Positions 36,622-52,479 of a stretch of DNA of 64,000 bases are shown here, piece by piece. The notes beneath the pieces were generated by a model. That model ran no database searches and was not told the origin of the DNA. It was given only the letters and a program-made list of their open reading frames with translations. Origin of the DNA: an uncultured Pirellulales bacterium (GTDB taxonomy: Bacteria > Planctomycetota > Phycisphaerae > Sedimentisphaerales > SM23-30). The stretch spans positions 262-64,261 of the forward strand of contig CAZICK010000008.1 of assembly GCA_964537505.1 (NCBI GenBank), given 5' to 3'. A program made the position numbers and the translations under genes. Positions within the stretch are counted from its first letter, which is position 1. Every line of letters begins with the position of its first letter.

Positions 36622-37335
36622 ATGCCCGACATAACCAGACTTTCGGTTGTTATGCCTGTCTTCAATGAAAAAGACACCCTCGCACAGTGCGTGCGCCGAG
36701 TACTGGCGGTGCAATTGCCGCTGGCCAAGGAACTGATCCTGATCGACGATGCCAGCGACGACGGCAGCGATAAGGTAATCGAGGATATTTGCCGCCAGCA
36801 CGTTTCGATGCCAATCAAGGTACTCACCCATAAACGCAACCAGGGCAAAGGAGCGTCTCTGCGAGACGGGTTCGCGGTTGTTACCGGCGATATAATAATC
36901 GTTCAGGACGCGGATTTGGAATACAATCCTGACGATTATCCGGCATTATTGAAACCTATTCTGGACGGCCGGGCGGACGTCGTATATGGCTCCAGGTTCG
37001 TCGGCAGTCAAGAAAAACGAGTACTGTATTTCTGGCACTACATAGGAAACAAGGTAGTAACTACCATGAGCAATATATTTACCAACCTGAACCTGACCGA
37101 CATGGAAACGTGCTATAAATTATTTCGACGGGAGGTAATCGAGCGAATACAGATCAAGAGCGAGCGGTTCGGCGTCGAGCCGGAGATAACCGCCAAGATA
37201 GCCAAGGCACACTGGCGAATCTACGAGGTGGGTATATCATATAGTGGACGCACTTATGAGGAAGGTAAAAAAATCACATGGAAAGATGGTCTCAAGGCAC
37301 TGCTGACCATTATCCGTTTTCGCTTTTTTGATTGA
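36622..37335 (+). CDS. GT2 glycosyltransferase, polyprenyl/dolichyl-phosphate sugar synthase-like
   Basis: The N-terminus reads LSVVMPVFNE. The motifs IDDASDDGS and QDADLEY are present. It is a short, soluble DPM1/Ppm1-like form of 237 aa. Confidence 0.75.
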   Translation: MPDITRLSVVMPVFNEKDTLAQCVRRVLAVQLPLAKELILIDDASDDGSDKVIEDICRQHVSMPIKVLTHKRNQGKGASLRDGFAVVTGDIIIVQDADLEYNPDDYPALLKPILDGRADVVYGSRFVGSQEKRVLYFWHYIGNKVVTTMSNIFTNLNLTDMETCYKLFRREVIERIQIKSERFGVEPEITAKIAKAHWRIYEVGISYSGRTYEEGKKITWKDGLKALLTIIRFRFFD

Positions 37336-39906: not shown

Positions 39907-41283
39907 TCAATGTGCTACCGGCTCGCCCAGCAGCATTTTCAATTCTTCGAGTTTTTCTTCGAGCATCTCTGCGTTTTGCGCCTCCACGTTCAGCCGCAGT
40001 AGCGGTTCGGTATTACTGCCCCGACAATTGAACCACCAGTTCTCGTATTGAATTGTTACGCCGTCAAGATAATCGATCTTGGCATCAGCATATTTTCGCG
40101 ACAACTCCGCCATCATCGCTTTTTTGTCTTCCACCTCGAAATTCATCTCACCGCTGCCATGATAGCGATGCAATGGACTGATCAGTTCACTCAGGGGCTT
40201 ATCATCGGCCGAGAGTATATTGAGTATATGAACCAACGTGATTATGCCGCTATCGGCAAAAAAATTGTCGCGATAGTAAAAGTGGCCGCTCAGTTCCCCG
40301 CCGAAAACACCCTTAGTGTCTCTTAACGCCTTCTTCATGAATACATGCCCCACTCTCTCACGTCGAGGCACACCCCCGTGCAGTTCGATCTCTTCTTTGA
40401 GCGATCGACTTGAGCGTAAATCGTAAACAATCGTCGAACCGGGATTCTTCTGCAGAAAATAACCCGCCAGCAGGGCCGTAATAATGTCACAGCCAACCGT
40501 CGCCCCAGTCTCATCCAACACCATCAAGCGGTCACCATCTCCATCGAAACACAACCCCATATCCGCTTTTTTATCGATAACTGCTTGTTTCAACTCGGCC
40601 AGATTACCTTCGACCAATGGGTTCGGATCGTGCTTGAACGTACCGTCATGCTCGAAATTGAGCGCTGTTATATCCAGATCGAGATCGCCCATAATTTCCG
40701 GCACTATTTTCCCCGCCATGCCGTTGGAAGCGTCGATCACAATCTTAAGCTTCTTCAAATTACTACCCAGAAACCGCAGCACATGACGCCGATATGCTTC
40801 AGTCAGGTCTTCCTGACGAACATGGCCGCCACCGACTCCCGCCGTATGACGCAATGCCGTAGCGATGTGCTTGATCTCCAGCAGCCCGGTATCGCTGCCG
40901 ACAGGCCGGGCCTTCTGGCCGCTTATCTTGAATCCATTATACTGGGCCGGATTATGGCTGGCCGTTACCTGTATGCCGCCGCACGTACCCAAATGATTTA
41001 TCGCAAAGTATATCTGCGGGGTATCGATCATACCGATATCGATTACATCCGCTCCCGAAGCAGTCATCCCTTTAATCGCCGCCTCAGCCAGCGACGGACT
41101 GTGCCTGCGCATATCACGTCCCACAATCACCGATTGGGCGCTAGCCATGCCGCGATCATATCCATGCAGCAGCGAACGCAAAAACTGTGCTGTAGCGTGA
41201 CCGATCTTCCAGGCAGCATCCTCATCAACCTGCTGAGGATATAAACCACGAATATCATACGCCTTGAATATAGATTCATCCAT
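39907..41283 (-). CDS. Phosphomannomutase/phosphoglucomutase
   Basis: The active-site loop is TASHNPAQYNGFK and the metal loop is FDGDGDR. Confidence 0.9.
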   Translation of the reverse strand: MDESIFKAYDIRGLYPQQVDEDAAWKIGHATAQFLRSLLHGYDRGMASAQSVIVGRDMRRHSPSLAEAAIKGMTASGADVIDIGMIDTPQIYFAINHLGTCGGIQVTASHNPAQYNGFKISGQKARPVGSDTGLLEIKHIATALRHTAGVGGGHVRQEDLTEAYRRHVLRFLGSNLKKLKIVIDASNGMAGKIVPEIMGDLDLDITALNFEHDGTFKHDPNPLVEGNLAELKQAVIDKKADMGLCFDGDGDRLMVLDETGATVGCDIITALLAGYFLQKNPGSTIVYDLRSSRSLKEEIELHGGVPRRERVGHVFMKKALRDTKGVFGGELSGHFYYRDNFFADSGIITLVHILNILSADDKPLSELISPLHRYHGSGEMNFEVEDKKAMMAELSRKYADAKIDYLDGVTIQYENWWFNCRGSNTEPLLRLNVEAQNAEMLEEKLEELKMLLGEPVAH

Positions 41284-42567: not shown

Positions 42568-42596
42568 TTGACGAGGAAACGTAAATACAATAGAAT
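42568..42596 (+). promoter_or_regulatory. Sigma70-type promoter of the discoidin/GT-C/apbE operon
   Basis: The sequence reads TTGACG-N17-TAGAAT. It leaves a leader of about 100 nt with an AAGGAAAG ribosome-binding site. Confidence 0.6.
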
Positions 42597-42700
42597 GTTG
42601 AGGTTGAGTAGTTGTGCATCGTCGGTGTAGGCGGTGTTGCCGAATGTTGGTTGTTCCGGAAAATGGAACATTGATCGCATTTTGAAAAGGAAAGTAAGAT

Positions 42701-43495
42701 ATGCAAAGCAATTTCGCCAAATCAAGTGTAGGAATGTCAATTGTGTTATTGCTGACAGTTATCCTGTTTGCCCCATCCTGTAAAAAATCTGAATCGGCAT
42801 CTAAGCCGGGAGGAAACAGGGTTGCCGTCAGCCCAGACAAGCCCGGCGATAACAACACCGGTAAAACGCCTGGGACGGACGCAACCCCAACTACCGCCGG
42901 ACTTGTGCCGCTGCCGATCAAGCTGCCCACGCCAATGTTCAAAGGTACGCCGACACCTACCGTAGTACCCAACCTTGAGACACCACTGGGCCGAGATCGC
43001 GACCCGTTCCTGGCCCCGGTTGGAGCAAAAAATGTCGCATTAAACAAACTGGTAAGCAGCAGTGACGATGCGCCAATCATCGGCCAGATCGAATGGATCA
43101 CCGACAGCGACCGGGAAGCGTCTGACGGCTCCTATGTTGAGTTAGGTCCAGGTCCGCAACACGTAACCATCGACCTCGGAGCAAAACATGAAATATATGC
43201 CGTTCTTTTCTGGCACTATCACGGTCAAGCCTGCGTCTATTTTGACGTAGTAGTACAGATTGCCGACGACCCCGATTTTATTACGAATGTCACAACCATC
43301 TTCAACAACGATCACGACAACACTTCCGGTTTTGGCAGTGGTCCTGATAAAAACTACGTCGAAACGAATGAAGGCAAACTTGTCGATGCCAAACGTGCTC
43401 AGGGCCGTTATGTGCGACTTTACAGCGACGGCAACAACCTCTCCGAATTGAACCGTTACATCGAGGTCGAAGTTTACGGCAAACCCGTACAATGA
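42701..43495 (+). CDS. Secreted (possible lipo)protein: Pro/Thr-rich linker plus discoidin (F5/8 type C-like) domain, paralog 1
   Basis: The signal peptide ends at Cys (ILFAPSCKK). The linker reads TPGTDATPTTAGLVPLPIKLPTPMFKGTPTPTVVP. The domain contains HVTIDLGAKHEIYAV...GRYVRLYSDGN...YIEVEVYG. Confidence 0.7.
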   Translation: MQSNFAKSSVGMSIVLLLTVILFAPSCKKSESASKPGGNRVAVSPDKPGDNNTGKTPGTDATPTTAGLVPLPIKLPTPMFKGTPTPTVVPNLETPLGRDRDPFLAPVGAKNVALNKLVSSSDDAPIIGQIEWITDSDREASDGSYVELGPGPQHVTIDLGAKHEIYAVLFWHYHGQACVYFDVVVQIADDPDFITNVTTIFNNDHDNTSGFGSGPDKNYVETNEGKLVDAKRAQGRYVRLYSDGNNLSELNRYIEVEVYGKPVQ

Positions 43496-43538
43496 AAATA
43501 CCCTCTTGCTATAGCTTCTTGCCACGAGGAAATAAAAC

Positions 43539-44330
43539 ATGCAAAGTAAAGACGCTGGTCTGAATACAAGAATACTTGTTATTTTGCTGACAGTTATCTT
43601 GTTTGCCCCATCCTGCAAAAAATCTGAACCGGCATCTGAACCGGGAGGAAACAAGGTTGCTGCCAACCCGGAAAAGTCCGGTGATAACGAAACCGGCAAA
43701 ACCTCCGAGCCAAGCAAAACCCCAACTACCGCCGGACTTGTGCCGCTGCCGATCAAGCTGCCTAAGCCAACGACCAGAGTTACGCCGACGCCTGCCACAG
43801 TACCCAACCTGGAGACACCTCTGGGCCGAGATCGCGACCCGTTCCTGGCCCCGGTTGGAGCAAAAAATGTTGCCTTGGGCAAACCGGTAAGCAGTAGCGA
43901 CGATGCGCCCATCGTCGGCGAGAACGAATTGATCACTGACGGCGACCGGGAAACGTCTGACGGCTCCTATGTTGAGTTAGGCCCAGGTCTGCAACACGTA
44001 ACCATCGACCTCGGAGCAAAATATGAAATATATGCCGTTCTTTTCTGGCACTATCACGGTAGCGACTGCGTCTATTTTGACGTAGTAGTACAGATTGCCG
44101 ACGATTCTGATTTTATTACGAATGTCACAACCATTTTCAACAACGATTACGACAACAGTTGCGGTTTTGGCAGTGGTCCCGATAAAAACTACGTCGAAAC
44201 GAATGAAGGCAAACTTGTCGATGCCAAACGTGCCCAGGGCCGTTACGTGCGACTTTACAGCGACGGTAACAACCTCTCCGAAATGAACCGGTACATCGAG
44301 GTCGAAGTTTACGGCAAACCCGTACAATGA
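43539..44330 (+). CDS. Secreted (possible lipo)protein: Pro/Thr-rich linker plus discoidin domain, paralog 2
   Basis: By eye it is about 80-85% identical to paralog 1. It starts 43 bp after paralog 1. Confidence 0.7.
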   Translation: MQSKDAGLNTRILVILLTVILFAPSCKKSEPASEPGGNKVAANPEKSGDNETGKTSEPSKTPTTAGLVPLPIKLPKPTTRVTPTPATVPNLETPLGRDRDPFLAPVGAKNVALGKPVSSSDDAPIVGENELITDGDRETSDGSYVELGPGLQHVTIDLGAKYEIYAVLFWHYHGSDCVYFDVVVQIADDSDFITNVTTIFNNDYDNSCGFGSGPDKNYVETNEGKLVDAKRAQGRYVRLYSDGNNLSEMNRYIEVEVYGKPVQ

Positions 44331-45949
44331 AATACCTTCTAAAATGTTGCCTCCTGATCCTGGCTGCGACAATTGTTGCCTTGGCGATGCGCCTCCCGCA
44401 GTTGGCCCGGCGGCCCATGCACTGCGACGAGGCGGTTCATGCCTGTATATTCCGCGATCTGCTCGAACAGGGCGACTACCGCTATAGCCCAAACGAATAC
44501 CATGGCCCGACGCTTAGCTATCTCACCCTCATTCCTGCATGGCTTGGCGGCAGCGAAAAACTAATCCAAATAAACGAATGTACATTGCGGGGAGTGTCTG
44601 TCTTTTTTGGGGTGCTGCTCGTATTGCTGACCGTATTGCTGTTCAGGGGCCTCACTCCACCTGTAGCTATTATCGCCGCCTTGCTGACCGCCGTTTGTCC
44701 GGCCATGGTTTACTACAGTCGTTACTATCTGCACGAGATGCTCCTGGTCTGCTTTACTTTTGGTGCGATCATTTCCGGCTACCGCTATACGCAAAACCGA
44801 AATATCATCTGGGCCTTACTGACCGGATTATGCCTCGGACTGATGCACGCGACCAAAGAAACCTGCATAATCGCCTTCGGGGCCATGACGATATCTCTTA
44901 CACTTGTGCTGATAATGCGCCGGTGGCAGAATAACGATTCTTTGACAAATACTTTCAAGACAATAAAACCCGCACATTGGGCAGCGGCAATCGCCGTTGC
45001 CTGCCTGGTTTCAGTTTCGTTTTATTCATCCTTTTTCACCAATCCTCACGGAATACCCGATTCCTTACACAGCTTCATCATCGCCTTTAATCGCGCCAGC
45101 CGAGACCATTCACATCCCCATCCGTGGAACTACTTCCTAAAAATAATGATTTATTGGCAGTCCGACGCGGGTCCGGCATGGAGCGATGCCGTTATTATCC
45201 TTTTAGCCGCGATAGGTTTTATAGTCGCGATGGTGCGAAAGGGCATTGTCGGCGTGGACTTTCATCTGCTGCGGTTCATCGCCTTTTACACTGCCATTAT
45301 GACGATCTCCTATTCGGCCATTCCCTACAAAACCCCATGGTGTATGCTCGGGTTCCTCCATGGTATGATACTGTTGGCAGCGGTCGGTGCGGTCGCGACA
45401 ATAAAATTAACGACAAACCTTCCATCTAAGATACTTTTAGGACTGCTGCTGCTGGCGGCAGGTGTGAATTTCGGCTGGATGGCATATCTGGCAAGCTACA
45501 GATACGCCGCCGACACGGTCAATCCCTACGCTTATGTCCACACCTCACCGGATGTGTACGAAATGGTACAACGCATAGAAGAAATCGCGGCGGTCCATCC
45601 ACGCGGGCACGACATGACTATCCACATCGTTTCCAGCGAACATAAATATTGGCCGCTTCCCTGGTACCTGCGATCTTTCAACAATGTCGGCTACTACGAC
45701 AAGGTATCGGACAACATAACGGATGCCGAGGTCATCATCGCTTCTCCCGACCGTCAGATGGACCTCCGGGAAAAGTTATACAATATCCCGCCCACAGGCC
45801 AAATAAATCTTTATGTCCCCATTTTCGATCGATACCTGGAGCTGCGACCGCAAATCGAATTGCGCGGCTATGCCACAAAAGACCTGTGGGACCGCTTCCA
45901 GGAGCACCAGGGACAATCCCCACCTCCAACCACGCAAACCGACGGGTGA
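44327..45949 (+). CDS. GT-C fold membrane glycosyltransferase, PMT/ArnT-like (resembles the TIGR03663/Agl23-like family)
   Basis: The 540-aa product has many TM spans. HCDEAVH follows TM1, matching the Asp-Glu loop-1 motif. The start overlaps the paralog 2 stop in an ATGA. Confidence 0.65.
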   Translation: MKYLLKCCLLILAATIVALAMRLPQLARRPMHCDEAVHACIFRDLLEQGDYRYSPNEYHGPTLSYLTLIPAWLGGSEKLIQINECTLRGVSVFFGVLLVLLTVLLFRGLTPPVAIIAALLTAVCPAMVYYSRYYLHEMLLVCFTFGAIISGYRYTQNRNIIWALLTGLCLGLMHATKETCIIAFGAMTISLTLVLIMRRWQNNDSLTNTFKTIKPAHWAAAIAVACLVSVSFYSSFFTNPHGIPDSLHSFIIAFNRASRDHSHPHPWNYFLKIMIYWQSDAGPAWSDAVIILLAAIGFIVAMVRKGIVGVDFHLLRFIAFYTAIMTISYSAIPYKTPWCMLGFLHGMILLAAVGAVATIKLTTNLPSKILLGLLLLAAGVNFGWMAYLASYRYAADTVNPYAYVHTSPDVYEMVQRIEEIAAVHPRGHDMTIHIVSSEHKYWPLPWYLRSFNNVGYYDKVSDNITDAEVIIASPDRQMDLREKLYNIPPTGQINLYVPIFDRYLELRPQIELRGYATKDLWDRFQEHQGQSPPPTTQTDG

Positions 45950-45953
45950 AAAA

Positions 45954-46979
45954 ATGACTCAGTCGCAGCCCGACCATTCAATAGTAAATAATTGCCGATC
46001 TCTCTCGGGAATACGCCGGTTTTCACATGAAGCCATGGCCACCACTTATGAAATACTTGTTCTCCACGAGAACATGAAGTACGCCGGGCAAGCCGCCCGG
46101 GCCGCCTTCAATGAGCTTGACCGCATCGAGCAGATGTTCAGTCGCTTTATCGAAAACAGTGATATTTCCCGGATCAATTTCCGTGCCGCCGACCAGCTCG
46201 TGTATGTGGGACCGGAGACCTTCGAATGTCTGCAGATTGCCGTCCAAATGTATGACCAAACCAACGGGGCTTTCGATATTACCATTGGCCCTTTACTGAA
46301 TTGCTGGCATGACAGAAACACATATATGCCTTCGCAGGAAGAGTTGGATTTCGCCGCCGCCCGTACCGGCATGCACCTCTTGCAACTGGACGAAACCGAG
46401 CAGGCGGTGCGACTGCTGACCCAGGGTCCACAGATCGACCTGGGCGGCATCGGCAAAGGATACGCTGTCAACCGAATGGCCATGCTTTTGCGAGAATGGA
46501 GTATTGACGCCGCACTGATTCATGGAGGCTATAGTTCTGTTCTGGCTCTCGACGGCCCGGCCGATACCAAAGGCTGGCCCGTTACACTGAGCAATCCGCG
46601 CAATCACCATGACATCCTGGCTTACCTCCACTTAAAGAACCAAACGCTCGGCAGTTCGGGGCTGCAAAAGGGATTGCACATCATCGATCCGCGAACGGCC
46701 CGCCCGGTCAGCGGAAAAATCGCCGCATGGTCACTGCCCCCCGCCACAGAACTCGCCCCAACTGATGGGGCACAGGCCGATGCCCTTTCAACCGCTTTTA
46801 TGGTAATGTCACTGGACGAAATCGACCGATATTGTTCGTCTGATTTTGGACAGGGATTGCGGGCTATCGTCATACTGGATGAGCAAGACACGCAGACACA
46901 TAGCAATAAGGTCTTGCGATTCGGCACCTGGCCCGAAAGCGACCTGAAACCTCACAACAATAAAAATCACAAAGAATAA
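45954..46979 (+). CDS. apbE: FAD:protein FMN transferase ApbE, with no evident signal peptide
   Basis: The motifs HEAMATTYEI, DLGGIGKGYAV and DALSTAFMV are present. I trimmed the start to the ATG at 45954, 4 nt after the GT-C stop. Confidence 0.8.
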   Translation: MTQSQPDHSIVNNCRSLSGIRRFSHEAMATTYEILVLHENMKYAGQAARAAFNELDRIEQMFSRFIENSDISRINFRAADQLVYVGPETFECLQIAVQMYDQTNGAFDITIGPLLNCWHDRNTYMPSQEELDFAAARTGMHLLQLDETEQAVRLLTQGPQIDLGGIGKGYAVNRMAMLLREWSIDAALIHGGYSSVLALDGPADTKGWPVTLSNPRNHHDILAYLHLKNQTLGSSGLQKGLHIIDPRTARPVSGKIAAWSLPPATELAPTDGAQADALSTAFMVMSLDEIDRYCSSDFGQGLRAIVILDEQDTQTHSNKVLRFGTWPESDLKPHNNKNHKE

Positions 46980-47234: not shown

Positions 47235-47594
47235 ATGAATTACGGACCAAGAGTTGAGATCAGCCATGAAGGCCGGATTGTCGTGGCTGAACTGCAGGAT
47301 GACGAAATACTGGAAGAAGCGATCATCAACGAAGTAGCAGATTCCCTGTTTTCGGTGGTCGCCGATACCCCACAGATAAAGTTGTTGTTGAGTTTCGAAA
47401 AAGTCAAGTACCTCAGCTCCAGTGCGCTGGGTATGCTCATCAGGTTGAACAAACGCGTAGAAGAGAACGGTGGAACACTAAAGCTCTGTCAGTTGCGAAA
47501 ATCCCTGTATGAGATATTTGCAATAACCAAGCTCGATCGGCTATTTGAAAGCTACGACGAGAAAAACACAGCGATAAGCAGCTTTGGGACCTGA
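47235..47594 (+). CDS. STAS-domain anti-sigma-factor antagonist (SpoIIAA/RsbV-like)
   Basis: The 119-aa product has the phosphorylatable-Ser context YLSSSALGMLI. Confidence 0.8.
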   Translation: MNYGPRVEISHEGRIVVAELQDDEILEEAIINEVADSLFSVVADTPQIKLLLSFEKVKYLSSSALGMLIRLNKRVEENGGTLKLCQLRKSLYEIFAITKLDRLFESYDEKNTAISSFGT

Positions 47595-47627
47595 CCTGTA
47601 AACTGTGAAAAATTTAATCTAAGTTCC

Positions 47628-48059
47628 ATGCCAACCAAAATATACCAGGAAATCGAATTCCCCAGCACTTGCTGGCAAGCCAAAATTGCTGAGGATCGCA
47701 TCATCGAAGCAACCAGAGCTTGCAAATACTCCGAGGAAGATATTTTTGCCCTGCGGTTGAGCATGGAAGAAGCACTGCTCAACGCCATTCGACACGGAAA
47801 TACCAAAGACCAACAAAAAAAAATAACCTTACGCTACTGCGTAAACGAGCAGCAAATAGACATTTACGTAGCAGACGAAGGTTCGGGTTTTGATCCCATG
47901 AAAATTGCGGATCCGACGCTTCCAGAAAATCTGGAACGCCCAAATGGGCGAGGTATAATGTTAATGCGAGCCTACATGAATCTGGTTGAGTATAATGACG
48001 TCGGGAATGTGGTTCACCTGGTCAAGTTGAACTCACAAGCCCCAAAACACACCGGCTGA
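47628..48059 (+). CDS. Anti-sigma regulatory Ser kinase (SpoIIAB/RsbW-like HATPase)
   Basis: The N-box is EEALLNAIRHGN, G1 is DEGSGFD and G2 is GRGIMLM. Confidence 0.8.
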   Translation: MPTKIYQEIEFPSTCWQAKIAEDRIIEATRACKYSEEDIFALRLSMEEALLNAIRHGNTKDQQKKITLRYCVNEQQIDIYVADEGSGFDPMKIADPTLPENLERPNGRGIMLMRAYMNLVEYNDVGNVVHLVKLNSQAPKHTG

Positions 48060-48112
48060 CTCATCGGCAGCCGTTAGCCCAGAGACCAACCTGGGAAGAA
48101 AAGAGAAAGAGT

Positions 48113-48814
48113 ATGCAACGAAAACTCGTCAGAAACGCCACCGGCAGCCTGTGTTTTTCTCTCACGACAATGGCAATGTCGATCCTTATCTTGTCAGGCT
48201 GTCAATCCGGTTTCAACAGCAATCTTCCTCCATCGCAGGTGAGACCCGTCCAGTGGCCAGGCGTAACCGTACCAAAATATACTCCCCATTCTGCTCAGCC
48301 GGATTTCACGCCGAACAGTCAATTCCCCTACCAATGGCTCCCGATGCGCAACTACGAGGATTTTAATCGTTGGAAAGGAATCATAATTCATCATTCAGCC
48401 GGCGATTTCGGGGACGCGGCGACATTTGACCGGGAGCACAAAGAGAAGGGCTGGGACGGCTTGGGATACCATTTCGTCATCAACAACGGCAAAAACACAC
48501 GTCGCATAGGAGATGGTGTGGTACAAGTCGGCCAGCGATGGCAACAGCAAACCAAAGGCGCTCACTGCCGGGTCGATCCTTCCGACAATAACTACTGGAA
48601 CGAACATACCATCGGTATATGTCTGGTTGGCAATTTTGAAAATCACCGGCCCAGCGAGGCCCAGTGGCAATCGCTGGTAAAACTGGTCCGCTTTCTTCTG
48701 CAGCGATATCACATACCTGTTGACAAAATTAAATGTCACCGAGACATAAAACCAACCAAATGCCCCGGAAAAAACTTCTCACTGAACGAACTAAAACAGC
48801 GAATGCTATATTGA
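48113..48814 (+). CDS. N-acetylmuramoyl-L-alanine amidase (Amidase_2/AmpD-PGRP fold) lipoprotein
   Basis: The lipobox is ILSGC. The motifs IIIHHSAG, GYHFVI and the C-terminal KCPG are present. Confidence 0.75.
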   Translation: MQRKLVRNATGSLCFSLTTMAMSILILSGCQSGFNSNLPPSQVRPVQWPGVTVPKYTPHSAQPDFTPNSQFPYQWLPMRNYEDFNRWKGIIIHHSAGDFGDAATFDREHKEKGWDGLGYHFVINNGKNTRRIGDGVVQVGQRWQQQTKGAHCRVDPSDNNYWNEHTIGICLVGNFENHRPSEAQWQSLVKLVRFLLQRYHIPVDKIKCHRDIKPTKCPGKNFSLNELKQRMLY

Positions 48815-48815
48815 T

Positions 48816-50867
48816 TCAGTCGGATAAGCCCTCGCTTTTTATCTTTATATTCCGATACCACACCGCCTGACCATGATCCTGAAATCCGATATACCCCATC
48901 CGCGGCAGATCCTTATAGGCAATACCAAACTTATTTGGCGTACCGTCCGGATTTTTATGCGGCTCGGTCCACCTGTCCAGGTCCATATCGACGACCTCCC
49001 GGCCGTTCATCACCACGCTGACATGGCTACCTTGGGCCGATATCGTCATGCGGTTCCATTGCCCCGGCTCGTTCACCGTGTTCTCGCTAGGAGCCAAAAT
49101 ATCGAATATCCCGCCGCAATCGTGTTTGTCCGGCTGGGACTTACCGTAAGAGTCCAGCACCTGCACCTCGATCCACGGCAGCCACTCCCTGTCGCCGGTG
49201 CGGATGAAAATCCCGCTGTTGGTGTCCTTGGCAACCTTAAATCCCACATCTAAAATAAAATCGCCGTATTTGCCTTTCGTCCAGATGTCACCTCCACCGT
49301 TACGGGTCAACACACCTTCAGCAAACGTCCAGCTACCCGCCTTATACACACCGTTCGACAGGTCCTCGGCAAACAGATTCCGCCAGCCACTGGGCTTTAG
49401 CTTGCCTGCTGTCTCGCTGAAGTACACTACGCTTTTTCTTATTTCGGGAACCGAATTTTCCCAGTTATGTTCGTACTCAACCGAAAACACGCCCATAAAC
49501 TTTTGTCGGTGCAATTCCTCCAGTAGCGACTTTACGTTCGCCTTGCCCGTGCCCCAAACCACATCGTGTGTCCCCTCACTGCCGAAATCGTTCAGGTCCT
49601 TAAAGTGCAAACTGACTATACGCCCTTCGAGCTTCCTTAATGCTTCCAGCGGATCCACATCTGAACGCATCCAATGACCGGTATCGGCGCATACGCCAAT
49701 CCATTTGCTCCGCCCCTTGCAAACCTCCAGCACTTTATCCGGATTCCAGTACTGCGACGGCTTGGGATGGTTATGTATCGCCACCTTGATCTTGTATTCA
49801 TTGCATAGCTTGTCAACCAGGTCGAACGCATCCTCCGGCGGTTCCGATACAATCGTTTCAATGCCCATATCCTGGGCAAAATCAAAAACCTTGCGGCATT
49901 CAACCTCATTGTTCGGCAGTCCTACCACACCGTAATTGACCAATTTTACCCCGGCATTGCTGAGCTTGTGCTTGACCTGTTGGCGAAGCTCGGCCGGCAT
50001 ATTATGATCGAATCTTACGCCAGGGATTTCTTTGCTCAACTGCTGACCCGGATACCCTTCGATCCAGTTTAACCCCAGCGAGGCGGTCTTATCGACCGCT
50101 TCATAAAATGTGAACAAATGAAACGAATACGCCTGCGCCCCCAGCCGCCAGCCGTCATAAGCATCCGTCAGCGGATGACAATTTCGCACCTCCGGGAAAA
50201 TCTCGTGCACGAAAATATTGCGAAAGCGGGCAGCGTTGTTGTCATAGCCCTCACCACCAGGGTGAACTTGTAAAGACAATCTCCCTTCCGCCGGTATTCC
50301 CTTTGTAGTCTCGGCCGTGTGCTGAAAATCGGTAACGAGCGCATCGTTGATCCAGACACGAATATGGGCGGGCTCACCCTGACAGATAATTCTCATCCGG
50401 TTCCACTGATCCTTCCGGAAATGTTTAACGCCGTCTGGACAATGCTGAACAAAACCACGCGTCCACGGACAATAAATTCCGCCAACCTCGCCGCCGGATC
50501 GATAATCCAGGGTTACCTGATGGCTCTTGCCGTCCGGACCGGTACGAAGAAAAACACCACTATCGAAAGGCCAATCGATTTTTGTCTCCAGCGTAAGCTC
50601 AAAATCCCGGAAATTACGTAGCGTGCTGAGAAAACCGCCCTTACCGGGCGGGTCTTGAACTCCAACAATCGCTCCATCTTCCACGGTCCACTTGCCCGCC
50701 AGGCCATGGCCAGGCAGATTATCATGCCTTGCCCAACCGCTAAGGTCCACGCCGTTGAACAACGGCTCGAAACCCGCAGGCGTCTGACCTTCACAAATTA
50801 AGCAGAAGCTGAAGAACACAACCGTCAACACTAATAACGTAATCGGCACGAATTCTCGTCGATTCAT
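48816..50867 (-). CDS. Secreted triple-domain protein: DUF1080 / xylose-isomerase-like TIM barrel / DUF1080
   Basis: A GGGAGG SD sits 6 nt before the ATG at 50867, followed by a signal peptide. DUF1080 hallmarks are FNGVDLSGW...FRNIFV and GWRNLFAEDLS...WYRNIKIK. The central region reads VAIHNHP...LHFKD...EYEH. Confidence 0.75.
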   Translation of the reverse strand: MNRREFVPITLLVLTVVFFSFCLICEGQTPAGFEPLFNGVDLSGWARHDNLPGHGLAGKWTVEDGAIVGVQDPPGKGGFLSTLRNFRDFELTLETKIDWPFDSGVFLRTGPDGKSHQVTLDYRSGGEVGGIYCPWTRGFVQHCPDGVKHFRKDQWNRMRIICQGEPAHIRVWINDALVTDFQHTAETTKGIPAEGRLSLQVHPGGEGYDNNAARFRNIFVHEIFPEVRNCHPLTDAYDGWRLGAQAYSFHLFTFYEAVDKTASLGLNWIEGYPGQQLSKEIPGVRFDHNMPAELRQQVKHKLSNAGVKLVNYGVVGLPNNEVECRKVFDFAQDMGIETIVSEPPEDAFDLVDKLCNEYKIKVAIHNHPKPSQYWNPDKVLEVCKGRSKWIGVCADTGHWMRSDVDPLEALRKLEGRIVSLHFKDLNDFGSEGTHDVVWGTGKANVKSLLEELHRQKFMGVFSVEYEHNWENSVPEIRKSVVYFSETAGKLKPSGWRNLFAEDLSNGVYKAGSWTFAEGVLTRNGGGDIWTKGKYGDFILDVGFKVAKDTNSGIFIRTGDREWLPWIEVQVLDSYGKSQPDKHDCGGIFDILAPSENTVNEPGQWNRMTISAQGSHVSVVMNGREVVDMDLDRWTEPHKNPDGTPNKFGIAYKDLPRMGYIGFQDHGQAVWYRNIKIKSEGLSD

Positions 50868-50899
50868 CTTATACCTCCCGGGTAAGCGGCAAACGAAAA

Positions 50900-52273
50900 C
50901 TACAGGGACCATCCCTGACGATATTGATCGCGAACGTATTGATTCGCTTCATCCACATTGGTAACCTTCATGTTCAGACCATCCCAATCGAGCTTCTTAC
51001 CCTTGCAGCGGATGGCAAGATTGCCCATTACAACTGTCTCGGTCAAAGGACCGGAATAATCAAAACTGGAACTGGGCTGCCTGCCTTCTTTGCAGCACCT
51101 GATCCAATCCCGTTCATGACCGCCCTCAGAGCCATCGACTCTGGCGATCGTTTTCTCCGGTCGCTGATATTCCTGCATCTTCGTCTCAGGTATCAGCCGC
51201 GGACCACTGCCGTAACAGCCACACACCAATTTACCCTTATCGCCCACAAAAAGTACGCCACCATCATTATCACCCATGCGCCGGTTCGGTTCGAGTTCTT
51301 CCGGCCGGGCAGGCATCATGCCACCATCGTACCAGGTCAGCTTAACCGGCGGCATATCACCCCGCTCGGGAAACTCATATCGCACTATCGACGCCACGGG
51401 CGCGGATTCGGAGTTGACCTTGGTGGCACAAGCCTCCACACCACTCGGATAACCGAGCTTAAGGGCCCAGAACGCCGGATCGATTATATGGCACGCCATA
51501 TCACCAAGTGCCCCAGTACCGAAATCCCACCAGCCACGCCAATTAAATGGCAAATACACCGTATTATATGGCCGTTCCGGTGCTGGTCCAAGCCACAAAT
51601 CCCAATCCAGGGTATCCGGCACCGCCGGCGTATCCTCAGGACGATCCATTCCCTGCGGCCAGATCGGACGATTGGTCCAGGCATGAACTTCACGTACCGC
51701 ACCGATCGCACCATCCCATATCCACTCACATACCAGGCGAATCCCCTCGCCGGAATGCCCCTGATTGCCCATTTGGGTAACGACCCCGGCTTTGCGGGCC
51801 GCCTCGGTCAACATACGAGCCTCATAAACGCAATGCGTCAAAGGTTTTTGACAATATACGCTTTTGCCGCTCTTGATCGCCGCCATAGAAATAACAGCAT
51901 GAGTATGATCGGGCGTAGCCACGATAACCGCGTCGATATCTTTCTGCTGATCGAGCATTTTGCGGTAATCGCGGTATGTCTTAGCCTTGGGATATCGCTT
52001 AAATGTTCCAGCCGCGTAATTGTCGTCCACATCACACAGGGCGACAATATTCTCACCGCTGGCGGCATTGACGTTATTCCCGCCCATACCACCGACACCG
52101 ATACCGGCTATATTGAGCTTTTCGCTTGGTGGAGTATCACCATTACGTCCCAGCACATAGCTGGGAACTATGGTAAACGCGGCCACCGCCGCAGCCGAGC
52201 CACCAACAAAATCACGCCGCGAAATCTTCACATCCCGGCTGGACAATATCCTGTTTTTCCTGTGATCCGCCAT
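50900..52273 (-). CDS. Gfo/Idh/MocA-family oxidoreductase with a twin-arginine signal
   Basis: An AAGGAG SD precedes the ATG at 52273. The TAT motif is SRRDFVGGSAAAVAAF and the Rossmann motif is IAGIGVGGMGG. Confidence 0.8.
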   Translation of the reverse strand: MADHRKNRILSSRDVKISRRDFVGGSAAAVAAFTIVPSYVLGRNGDTPPSEKLNIAGIGVGGMGGNNVNAASGENIVALCDVDDNYAAGTFKRYPKAKTYRDYRKMLDQQKDIDAVIVATPDHTHAVISMAAIKSGKSVYCQKPLTHCVYEARMLTEAARKAGVVTQMGNQGHSGEGIRLVCEWIWDGAIGAVREVHAWTNRPIWPQGMDRPEDTPAVPDTLDWDLWLGPAPERPYNTVYLPFNWRGWWDFGTGALGDMACHIIDPAFWALKLGYPSGVEACATKVNSESAPVASIVRYEFPERGDMPPVKLTWYDGGMMPARPEELEPNRRMGDNDGGVLFVGDKGKLVCGCYGSGPRLIPETKMQEYQRPEKTIARVDGSEGGHERDWIRCCKEGRQPSSSFDYSGPLTETVVMGNLAIRCKGKKLDWDGLNMKVTNVDEANQYVRDQYRQGWSL

Positions 52274-52479
52274 CTTTAAACACTCCTTATGTACCAATCG
52301 CCTGTGAATTTGCAATGCTGGTTTTTCGTAAATCCCTTAATTCCAAGGTAATATAAAGATCGCTACCTTGATTTTCTACACCCGTCTGGTATAAACAAGG
52401 ACATCTACGAAAAAACACACCAGCATCATAGTATTAACAAATATTGCGAATACGTCAAGCCTGCCACCGATCATTTCTT

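Follow-up and report, generated by a model that had tools for sequence, protein, structure and literature searches.

Why should the genes for a lipoprotein, for a membrane protein with the glycosyltransferase C (GT-C) fold and for an ApbE-family FAD:protein FMN transferase stand head to tail on one strand? The question is raised by a 64,000-nucleotide stretch of contig CAZICK010000008.1 from an uncultured Pirellulales bacterium, called the window hereafter, in which four such genes follow one another. We found that the window holds the local version of a strictly conserved trio of lipoprotein, GT-C and ApbE genes, with the lipoprotein gene duplicated, and that this trio is almost certainly a functional unit. 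As to its function, we favor, with a probability of roughly 0.35, a reading in which the GT-C protein and ApbE jointly modify the co-encoded lipoprotein with a glycan and a flavin. An earlier sequence-only reading of the window had proposed a protein O-glycosylation operon of the actinobacterial type, in which ApbE was given no role.

Conservation and fusions of the trio

The four genes lie on the forward strand and encode lipoprotein A (42701..43495, 264 amino acids), lipoprotein B (43539..44330, 263 amino acids), the GT-C membrane protein of the TIGR03663/Agl23 family (44327..45949, 540 amino acids) and the ApbE-family FAD:protein FMN transferase (45954..46979, 341 amino acids). The open reading frames, the coordinates and the junctions of +43, −4 and +4 bp given by the sequence-only reading were all borne out by the open reading frame listing and translation; the stop codon of lipoprotein B overlaps the GT-C start (ATGA, 44327-44330), and the last junction reads TGA-aaaa-ATG. 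The longest ApbE reading frame begins at 45813, inside the GT-C gene, with 47 open codons upstream of the real start, ATG 45954. This extension (45813-45953) has no hydrophobic segment and no counterpart in homologues, and it is probably meaningless. The two lipoproteins are tandem paralogues with 82% identity. Their duplication is also found in a sister contig (L087), and a single copy is present in most other loci.

A scan of species-representative genomes yielded 80 loci with GT-C homologues of 48-59% identity, the neighbors of which were identified by tblastn with the window proteins. The loci come from Planctomycetota (Phycisphaerae, Sedimentisphaerales and metagenome-assembled genomes labeled 'Pirellulales'), KSB1, Caldithrix (Calditrichota) and others. 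For each of the two neighbors, 78/78 testable loci had the same arrangement, a lipoprotein gene directly upstream of the GT-C gene and an ApbE gene directly downstream, all in one orientation, with two loci cut by contig ends in either case; chance would not produce such an arrangement. The junction between the lipoprotein and GT-C genes was −4 or +1 in 57/75 loci, and that between the GT-C and ApbE genes was −4 in 39/73. Whether GT-C homologues in related genomes adjoin genes for such lipoproteins had been put forward as a test by the sequence-only reading; they always do, and mostly with translational coupling. One locus that seemed to lack the lipoprotein gene naturally (L068) was rejected as such, its gene containing a masked run of N.

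The link between the GT-C protein and ApbE goes further than adjacency. L039, P0048, P0070 and P0108 encode both proteins as one in-frame GT-C::ApbE fusion, joined by three different sequences and without an additional transmembrane (TM) helix. In a representative library clustered at 50% identity, which contained 4,212 GT-C representatives at E<=1e-3 and 1,236 at E<=1e-30, fusion-sized proteins (795-889 amino acids) made up 12 of the best 150 representatives, and a complete PF02424 domain was found in 6/6 of those tested. A fusion locus (L086) retains the lipoprotein gene upstream. As no membrane helix is added, the fusion places ApbE beside the C-terminal domain of the GT-C protein, which is predicted to be periplasmic.

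A divergent trio (L083, 7377-10789) shows a further form of this link. Its GT-C protein of 693 amino acids continues past the C-terminal domain into a degenerate, inactive half-ApbE, and the next gene encodes a 444-amino-acid protein with a putative lipobox (LLAGGC, without a basic n-region), a second copy of the GT-C C-terminal domain and an intact ApbE. This locus is a duplication of a unit made of the C-terminal domain and ApbE. ApbE is the most tightly linked partner of the GT-C protein and not a passenger, and a model without a role for ApbE does not stand against its universal linkage, its recurrent in-frame fusion and its duplication together with the C-terminal domain.

Two other explanations for the sizes and frames of these genes were rejected. 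GT-C representatives of ~640 amino acids are not ApbE remnants, the 693-amino-acid protein of L083 being the sole one, and a programmed frameshift that would make the fusion everywhere is at odds with the position of ApbE in the −1 frame where the junction is ATGA and in the +1 frame in the window. When metagenomes were scanned with the L083-type ApbE, the only matches were the query itself and one distant fragment.

The three encoded proteins

The membrane protein matched three of the models named in the sequence-only reading, Pfam PMT, Pfam PMT_2 and NCBIfam TIGR03663 ('flippase activity-associated protein Agl23'), the last of which was decisive. TIGR03663 scored 205.1 bits against a cutoff of 126.25, with residues 10-453 aligned to positions 3-432 of the 435 in the model, whereas PMT (PF02366) scored 48.8 bits against 22.7 and covered model positions 73-238 only, with the loop-1 region outside; PMT_2 scored 36.8 bits. 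The motif HCDEAVH (residues 32-38, nt 44420-44440) lies directly after TM helix 1, and R22, R29, H32, D34, E35, H59-G60-P61, R132, K177, H263, H265, K335 and others are invariant in 39 homologues. The TIGRFAMs hallmarks of TIGR03663, all near the N-terminus, are the dipeptide DE, the tripeptide HGP and a pair of Arg residues, and the window protein has every one of them.

Structure prediction was in line with this assignment. The AlphaFold2 (AF2) model of the GT-C protein, with a predicted local distance difference test (pLDDT) value of 66, has 11 TM helices and a C-terminal alpha/beta domain, at residues ~396-540 (nt 45512-45946), and an HxHPW motif is located in external loop 4 (EL4). Hydropathy and the positive-inside rule gave the canonical GT-C topology, with the N-terminus inside and loop 1 and the C-terminal domain outside, so that this domain is predicted to be periplasmic. 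The top Foldseek matches were STT3, PglB, ArnT, AftA and ALG9 (E 5e-6 to 4e-3), and Pmt1 and Pmt2 ranked lower (E 0.3-1.2). The comparison by structure that the sequence-only reading had proposed thus upheld the GT-C fold, with ArnT among the top matches. On the other hand, profile searches of the GT-C protein against the PDB and of its C-terminal domain against the PDB and Pfam gave no match, and neither the protein nor that domain showed a haem- or flavin-binding signature.

The earlier assignment of a PMT/ArnT-like GT-C enzyme with a loop-1 Asp-Glu motif is well founded in the Pfam PMT match, the fold matches and the invariance of D34 and E35. Its likeness to GT39 Pmt at the family level is not, since TIGR03663 fits far better and Foldseek places Pmt1 and Pmt2 below STT3, PglB and ArnT. 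The membrane protein is a PMT/ArnT-like GT-C protein of the TIGR03663/Agl23 family, not a GT39 Pmt. Its likeness to the ArnT/ArnC system (GT83) lies in the fold, in the pairing of a GT-C protein with a glycosyltransferase family 2 (GT2) enzyme and in an HxH motif, which the ArnT structure has in its long periplasmic loop. However, similarity to ArnT was undetectable by the PDB profile search, the acceptor of ArnT is lipid A, and ArnT is not known to have a lipoprotein partner or an ApbE. The GT-C protein probably handles a polyprenyl-phosphate sugar.

Lipoprotein A is composed of a signal peptide, Cys27, a low-complexity disordered tether of ~40 amino acids, a segment at residues 68-107 (nt 42902-43021) and a carbohydrate-binding module family 32 (CBM32)/discoidin-like beta-sandwich at residues 108-264. 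We aligned 76 cassette-linked lipoproteins and, separately, 49 database homologues. The lipobox reads LFAPSC followed by KK in the window, and homologues have V/I-P/A-S/A/G at positions −3 to −1, with Cys27 at least 90% conserved and KK after it in the family alignment too; judged by this lipobox with its conserved Cys, the window protein is a predicted bacterial lipoprotein. The tether is variable, with a median length of 51 amino acids (30-83), 37% P+T+S and 17% D+E. The segment that follows it is strongly conserved over 40 amino acids (consensus KLPKPMFVGTPQDTRVPNLEKP), and its Thr83, at least 90% conserved, is located in a low-pLDDT loop of the AF2 model (KLPKPMFVGTP), where it is probably exposed. 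Because two-module paralogues repeat this segment along with the beta-sandwich, it is part of the module and not a linker. The 60-70-residue Pro/Thr linker of the sequence-only reading therefore holds for the ~40-residue tether, but its other half, residues 68-107, is a conserved segment for structure or recognition; the example peptide it had given runs from the last part of the tether into this segment. In the window, both copies of the segment (42902-43021 and 43737-43856) have drifted to Thr/Pro (KLPTPMFKGTPTPTVVPNLETP in A, KLPKPTTRVTPTPATVPNLETP in B), and the conserved Met-Phe and Gly are gone from copy B.

The discoidin assignment made earlier from the sequence also stood in part. The Pfam discoidin scores of 18-21 bits are below the gathering scores of 27.8 (PF00754) and 28.2 (PF22633), although some lipoprotein homologues do pass the discoidin cutoffs in precomputed annotation. 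The AF2 model (pLDDT 63 overall, >85 in the core strands) had CBM32 modules as its best Foldseek matches (4zy9, E 2.6e-7, TM-score on target 0.70), which supports a galactose-binding-domain-like, CBM32-like beta-sandwich as the predicted fold. The folded part of the lipoproteins is 62-70% identical to that of the window, versus 48-59% for the GT-C protein and 46-58% for ApbE, and this higher conservation would be no less compatible with a functional partner than with a passive substrate. Two-module lipoprotein paralogues (L081 6418-9362, L082, L085 3692-6695) were observed at a distance from any GT-C or ApbE gene, directly 3′ of an ECF (extracytoplasmic function) sigma factor gene and a gene for a ~510-amino-acid protein with no or weak Pfam hits, which together may be an anti-sigma or sensor pairing.

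ApbE matched PF02424 with 190 bits over model positions 1-257 of 266, and solved ApbE structures in the PDB matched it at E 8e-25. Its catalytic and FAD-site motifs AFD, GGIGKG, HIIDP and DALST are intact; among 72 cassette ApbEs, AFD is present in 70/72, GGxxKG in 60/72, HxxDP in 55/72 and DALST in 64/72. Both the GT-C protein and ApbE thus retain the catalytic residues of their families. The window ApbE is without a signal peptide and has a 7-amino-acid insertion, LPPATEL (46707-46727, residues ~252-258), that is missing from most of the cassette ApbEs.

Surroundings of the trio

In most loci, the trio forms the 3′ end of a long co-directional array (L001-L080, L083 and L086; e.g., L086 1-11550 and L002 1495-10603). 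The order of this array is AP_endonuc_2/DUF1080, a Gfo/Idh/MocA protein with a twin-arginine translocation (Tat) signal, multihaem cytochrome c, cytochrome b561, a second Gfo/Idh/MocA protein, an NCS1/MFS permease, lipoprotein, GT-C and ApbE. The multihaem cytochrome c is membrane anchored with 7 CxxCH motifs, the second Gfo/Idh/MocA protein is cytoplasmic, and the array as a whole resembles a system for periplasmic sugar oxidation and electron transfer. In the window and in several other loci, the trio stands without cytochromes; homologues of the multihaem cytochrome, cytochrome b, the cytoplasmic Gfo/Idh/MocA protein and the NCS1 permease were not found in the window. It does contain, convergent to the trio on the reverse strand, a two-gene unit (48816..52315) that encodes an AP_endonuc_2 + DUF1080 protein of 698 amino acids, with a xylose-isomerase-like TIM barrel and two DUF1080/3-keto-disaccharide-hydrolase domains, and a Gfo/Idh/MocA protein with the Tat signal SRRDFVGGS. 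Orthologues of these genes head the long trio-ending operon in other genomes. The unit is probably linked to the trio, if loosely, and the place of its orthologues upstream of the trio suggests that it may be a rearranged remnant of the long locus.

A small DPM1/PpgS/AglJ-like GT2 gene follows ApbE in convergent orientation in 55/80 loci, and it is not adjacent in the window. The GT2 gene (36622-37335) and the gene of the phosphomannomutase (PMM)/PGM family (39907-41283, reverse strand) that had been named as partners of the GT-C protein are both present in the window, but neither is conserved as a cassette neighbor. The window GT2, DPM1/ArnC-like and 7 kb off, is a paralogue of the cassette-linked enzyme (62 bits versus 380-470). 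The closest relative, L087 (94-1401), does not have it at the corresponding place: a gene for a B12-binding radical S-adenosylmethionine (SAM) protein stands there instead, and the intergenic DNA of this relative is 98% identical to that of the window. A PMM gene was found near the cassette in 0/80 loci. What survives of this part of the earlier proposal is the partner class, as a polyprenyl-phosphate-sugar-synthase-like GT2 is a recurrent neighbor, though another GT2 than that of the window. In ~20 loci (L013, L016, L018, etc.), the convergent GT2 gene is followed by a Zn-dependent phospholipase-C-like gene (PF00882), and in some loci a GH141-like beta-helix protein is encoded between ApbE and GT2.

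Upstream of the window cassette, a promoter-like site, TTGACG-N17-TAGAAT (42568..42596, forward strand), lies 105 nt before the lipoprotein A gene, where it is a putative promoter. It had been described as strong, and it is indeed the top-scoring site of the region, with a 10/12 match. However, such sites are as frequent as in shuffled sequence (8 found versus 8.3 expected), and its conservation is uninformative, as the spacer with the site is 98% identical in the nearest relative, L087, the sole close one. A search of the window with Rfam for an FMN or other riboswitch upstream gave two tRNAs only. Directly 3′ of ApbE (47235-48814) are genes for a STAS anti-sigma-antagonist, an RsbW-like HATPase_c_2 kinase and an Amidase_2 lipoprotein, an arrangement that is kept in L087 and not in the 80 loci.

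Possible functions and their meaning

How would such a trio work? The GT-C protein and ApbE both come from enzyme classes that derivatize Ser/Thr hydroxyls of exported proteins, and in our favored reading they would form one protein-modifying unit at the outer face of the cytoplasmic membrane. The small DPM1-like GT2, encoded next to the module in most genomes, would make a polyprenyl-phosphate-hexose, from which the GT-C protein would take the hexose. The lipoprotein would be O-glycosylated in its disordered tether and/or in the exposed conserved loop (KLPKPMFVGTP, Thr83) and would also receive covalent flavin mononucleotide (FMN) at a non-canonical site. The modified protein, a flavoprotein tethered to the membrane and able to bind glycans, would serve a periplasmic sugar-oxidizing and cytochrome chain, usually co-transcribed with the trio and made of the Tat-Gfo/Idh/MocA protein, DUF1080 protein, multihaem cytochrome c and cytochrome b. 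Besides the conserved order, the fusions and the make-up of the tether and loop, two parallels speak for this reading: known ApbE clusters likewise combine ApbE, a lipidated substrate and a membrane component, at times with the enzyme fused to its substrate (PMC8238504), and the GT2 linkage recalls the Agl22/Agl23 pair of Haloarcula (PMC11182771). Each half of this proposal is tentative: the lipoprotein may be a glycosyl acceptor, and it might, a little more doubtfully, be the target of flavinylation. A glycosyltransferase gene directly beside a conserved substrate gene is known from the pilin system PilA-TfpO/PilO; unlike the trio, that system has a Wzy_C/O-antigen-ligase-like enzyme, not a PMT-like GT-C protein, and is not known to have a second modifying enzyme.

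Several observations weigh against joint modification of the lipoprotein. The free cassette ApbEs with well-defined starts had no signal peptide, TM helix or conserved twin-arginine in 56/56 cases, and because they are signal-less, it is hard to explain how a free ApbE would meet a periplasmic client; ApbE is on the periplasmic side only as a fusion or, in L083, via the putative lipobox. Tat export of the free enzyme was considered and rejected: the window has RRF where homologues have KR/HR/QR/HH/KK, and the next residues are the first beta-strand of the fold. The flavinylation motif D-x-x-[S/T]-G-A-[S/T] was found in no protein of the window or the 80 loci; single substitutions in this motif are tolerated (PMC12052999). 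Lipoprotein paralogues in L081, L084 and L085 occur without GT-C or ApbE, and the 1:1 gene coupling together with the highly conserved lipoprotein fold suits a subunit of a complex. Both AF2 models, of the GT-C protein and of the lipoprotein, are of only modest confidence (pLDDT 66 and 63). By analogy, finally, the sole studied member of TIGR03663, Agl23, would point to a flippase, as which it is described, and not to a transferase.

The sidedness of ApbE suggests what a substrate might be. As the fused ApbE must be periplasmic and the free one is signal-less, a single shared substrate would have to be visible from both sides of the membrane, as would be the case for a Sec pre-protein that has a linear site or for a lipid-linked molecule that can be flipped. 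A flippable lipid-linked intermediate would account for an ApbE that is able to act both as a free cytoplasmic enzyme and, when fused, on the periplasmic side. That the GT-C-fold protein and the flavin transferase are one enzyme, which either puts a glycan and FMN on a motif-less lipoprotein or makes a flavin- or phospho-modified polyprenyl sugar intermediate, is nevertheless rather unlikely in our estimate.

The conservation of the lipoprotein leads to the main rival explanation, possible if doubtful, in which it is an accessory subunit and not a substrate. The CBM32-like lipoprotein would then present a glycan acceptor, such as an envelope polysaccharide, lipopolysaccharide or another glycoprotein, to the GT-C protein or, in an equally doubtful variant, work with an Agl23-like polyprenyl-phosphate-sugar flippase, while ApbE, in the complex, would flavinylate a cytochrome or oxidoreductase component or a target elsewhere. 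Its fold, which is more conserved across phyla than the enzymes (62-70% versus 46-59% identity), its 1:1 coupling, its best matches to glycan-binding modules and the membership of the 40-residue segment in a repeated module all speak for this, as does the multihaem cytochrome c, cytochrome b and Gfo/Idh/MocA genes sharing the operon in most loci. So does the flippase activity reported for Agl23: according to what PMC11182771 says of this protein, Agl23 of Haloarcula hispanica is a hexose-P-dolichol or lipid-linked oligosaccharide flippase for N- and O-glycosylation (Lu et al. 2020, cited there), and purified Agl23 flips M5GN2-PP-Dol. The window GT-C protein passes the TIGR03663 model with its DE, HGP and Arg invariants. 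Its homologues in most related loci, though not the window protein itself, have a small DPM1-like GT2 beside them, a pairing like that of Agl23 and Agl22, given as a Dol-P-hexose synthase in the same source. However, the trio is bacterial, its GT-C protein is obligatorily coupled and often fused to ApbE with a CBM32-like lipoprotein gene upstream, and no flavin link is reported for Agl23. An accessory role also leaves unexplained why ApbE is fused to the GT-C protein and not to a redox partner, no flavinylation motif was found in the cytochromes or other neighbors, and the trio appears self-sufficient, since the window and several loci do without cytochromes.

It is improbable that the trio serves electron transfer through flavin only, with the lipoprotein or the GT-C C-terminal domain as a non-canonical ApbE substrate and electron shuttle for the cytochromes, and with a GT-C-like protein that no longer moves sugar and is an anchor and export vehicle for ApbE or a translocator, for instance of flavin or a lipid-linked intermediate. 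The layout does resemble known flavinylation clusters and the Listeria FmnB/PplA extracellular electron transfer locus, which comprises a transporter, a lipoprotein, a membrane protein and an ApbE, and an NCS1/MFS permease gene is directly upstream of the trio in most loci. In the clusters surveyed by Meheust et al. (2021, PMC8238504), from which ApbEs without a signal peptide were excluded, ApbE likewise stands beside a lipidated extracytosolic protein and a polytopic membrane protein, with enzyme-partner fusions (ApbE-DUF2271) and frequent cytochrome or oxidoreductase linkage; unlike them, the trio loci are without [S/T]GA[S/T], and the membrane partner has a GT-C fold and is not an electron-transfer protein. 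The C-terminal domain and ApbE of L083 also behave as one evolutionary unit, as in the ApbE-DUF2271 enzyme-substrate fusions. Against this, the GT-C protein keeps all family-invariant catalytic-side residues (DE, HGP, R132, K177, HxH and K335) and has no haem- or flavin-binding signature, and the GT2 linked in 55/80 loci is polyprenyl-phosphate-sugar-synthase-like. Highly improbable is the mechanism first proposed, O-mannosylation by a Pmt-like GT-C enzyme, a Ppm1-like GT2 and PMM, with the lipoproteins as acceptors and ApbE unrelated. Actinobacterial Pmt (GT39) is a loop-1 Asp-Glu GT-C enzyme that uses a GT2-made polyprenyl-phosphate donor and Ser/Thr acceptors in Pro/Thr-rich secreted proteins and lipoproteins. 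The invariant loop-1 DE, the 48.8-bit PMT score above cutoff, a tether rich in P, T and S and a window GT2 that resembles polyprenyl-phosphate sugar synthases recall this Pmt + Ppm1 + ManB system, but the GT-C protein is not GT39 by its best model or its Foldseek ranking, PMM linkage is not conserved, and the window GT2 is not of the cassette-linked type, with the radical-SAM gene instead in the closest relative. Moreover, Pmt is not known to be encoded beside its substrates or to have an ApbE counterpart, whereas ApbE is universally linked and often fused here, and nothing points to mannose. Operon hitch-hiking, or adjacency without functional meaning, has nothing for it beyond the absence of a known joint function and is effectively refuted, with a negligible chance left to it, by the constancy of order and orientation across phyla (78/78 testable loci), by stop and start codons that as a rule overlap, and by recurrent independent fusions.

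Joint modification of the lipoprotein by the GT-C protein and ApbE, if true, would define a motif-less class of ApbE substrate and a glycan-binding redox lipoprotein for periplasmic sugar oxidation. To our knowledge, ApbE is otherwise known only as a stand-alone enzyme that recognizes [S/T]GA[S/T] in redox proteins, and its coupling and fusion to a GT-C protein, with no canonical target nearby, points to an unrecognized substrate class or chemistry. Full-text searches of the literature turned up no paper on ApbE in connection with GT-C or PMT_2 and none on TIGR03663 in bacteria; the trio appears undescribed and to combine two known kinds of system. With its three or four genes, it is a small system that offers a bacterial handle on the uncharacterized TIGR03663/Agl23 family and its flippase-versus-transferase question, with a built-in candidate acceptor or partner. 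The trio is abundant in sediment Planctomycetota, KSB1 and Calditrichota, and, standing at the end of sugar-oxidation and cytochrome operons, it may be a missing piece that couples glycan oxidation to electron transport in these anaerobes.

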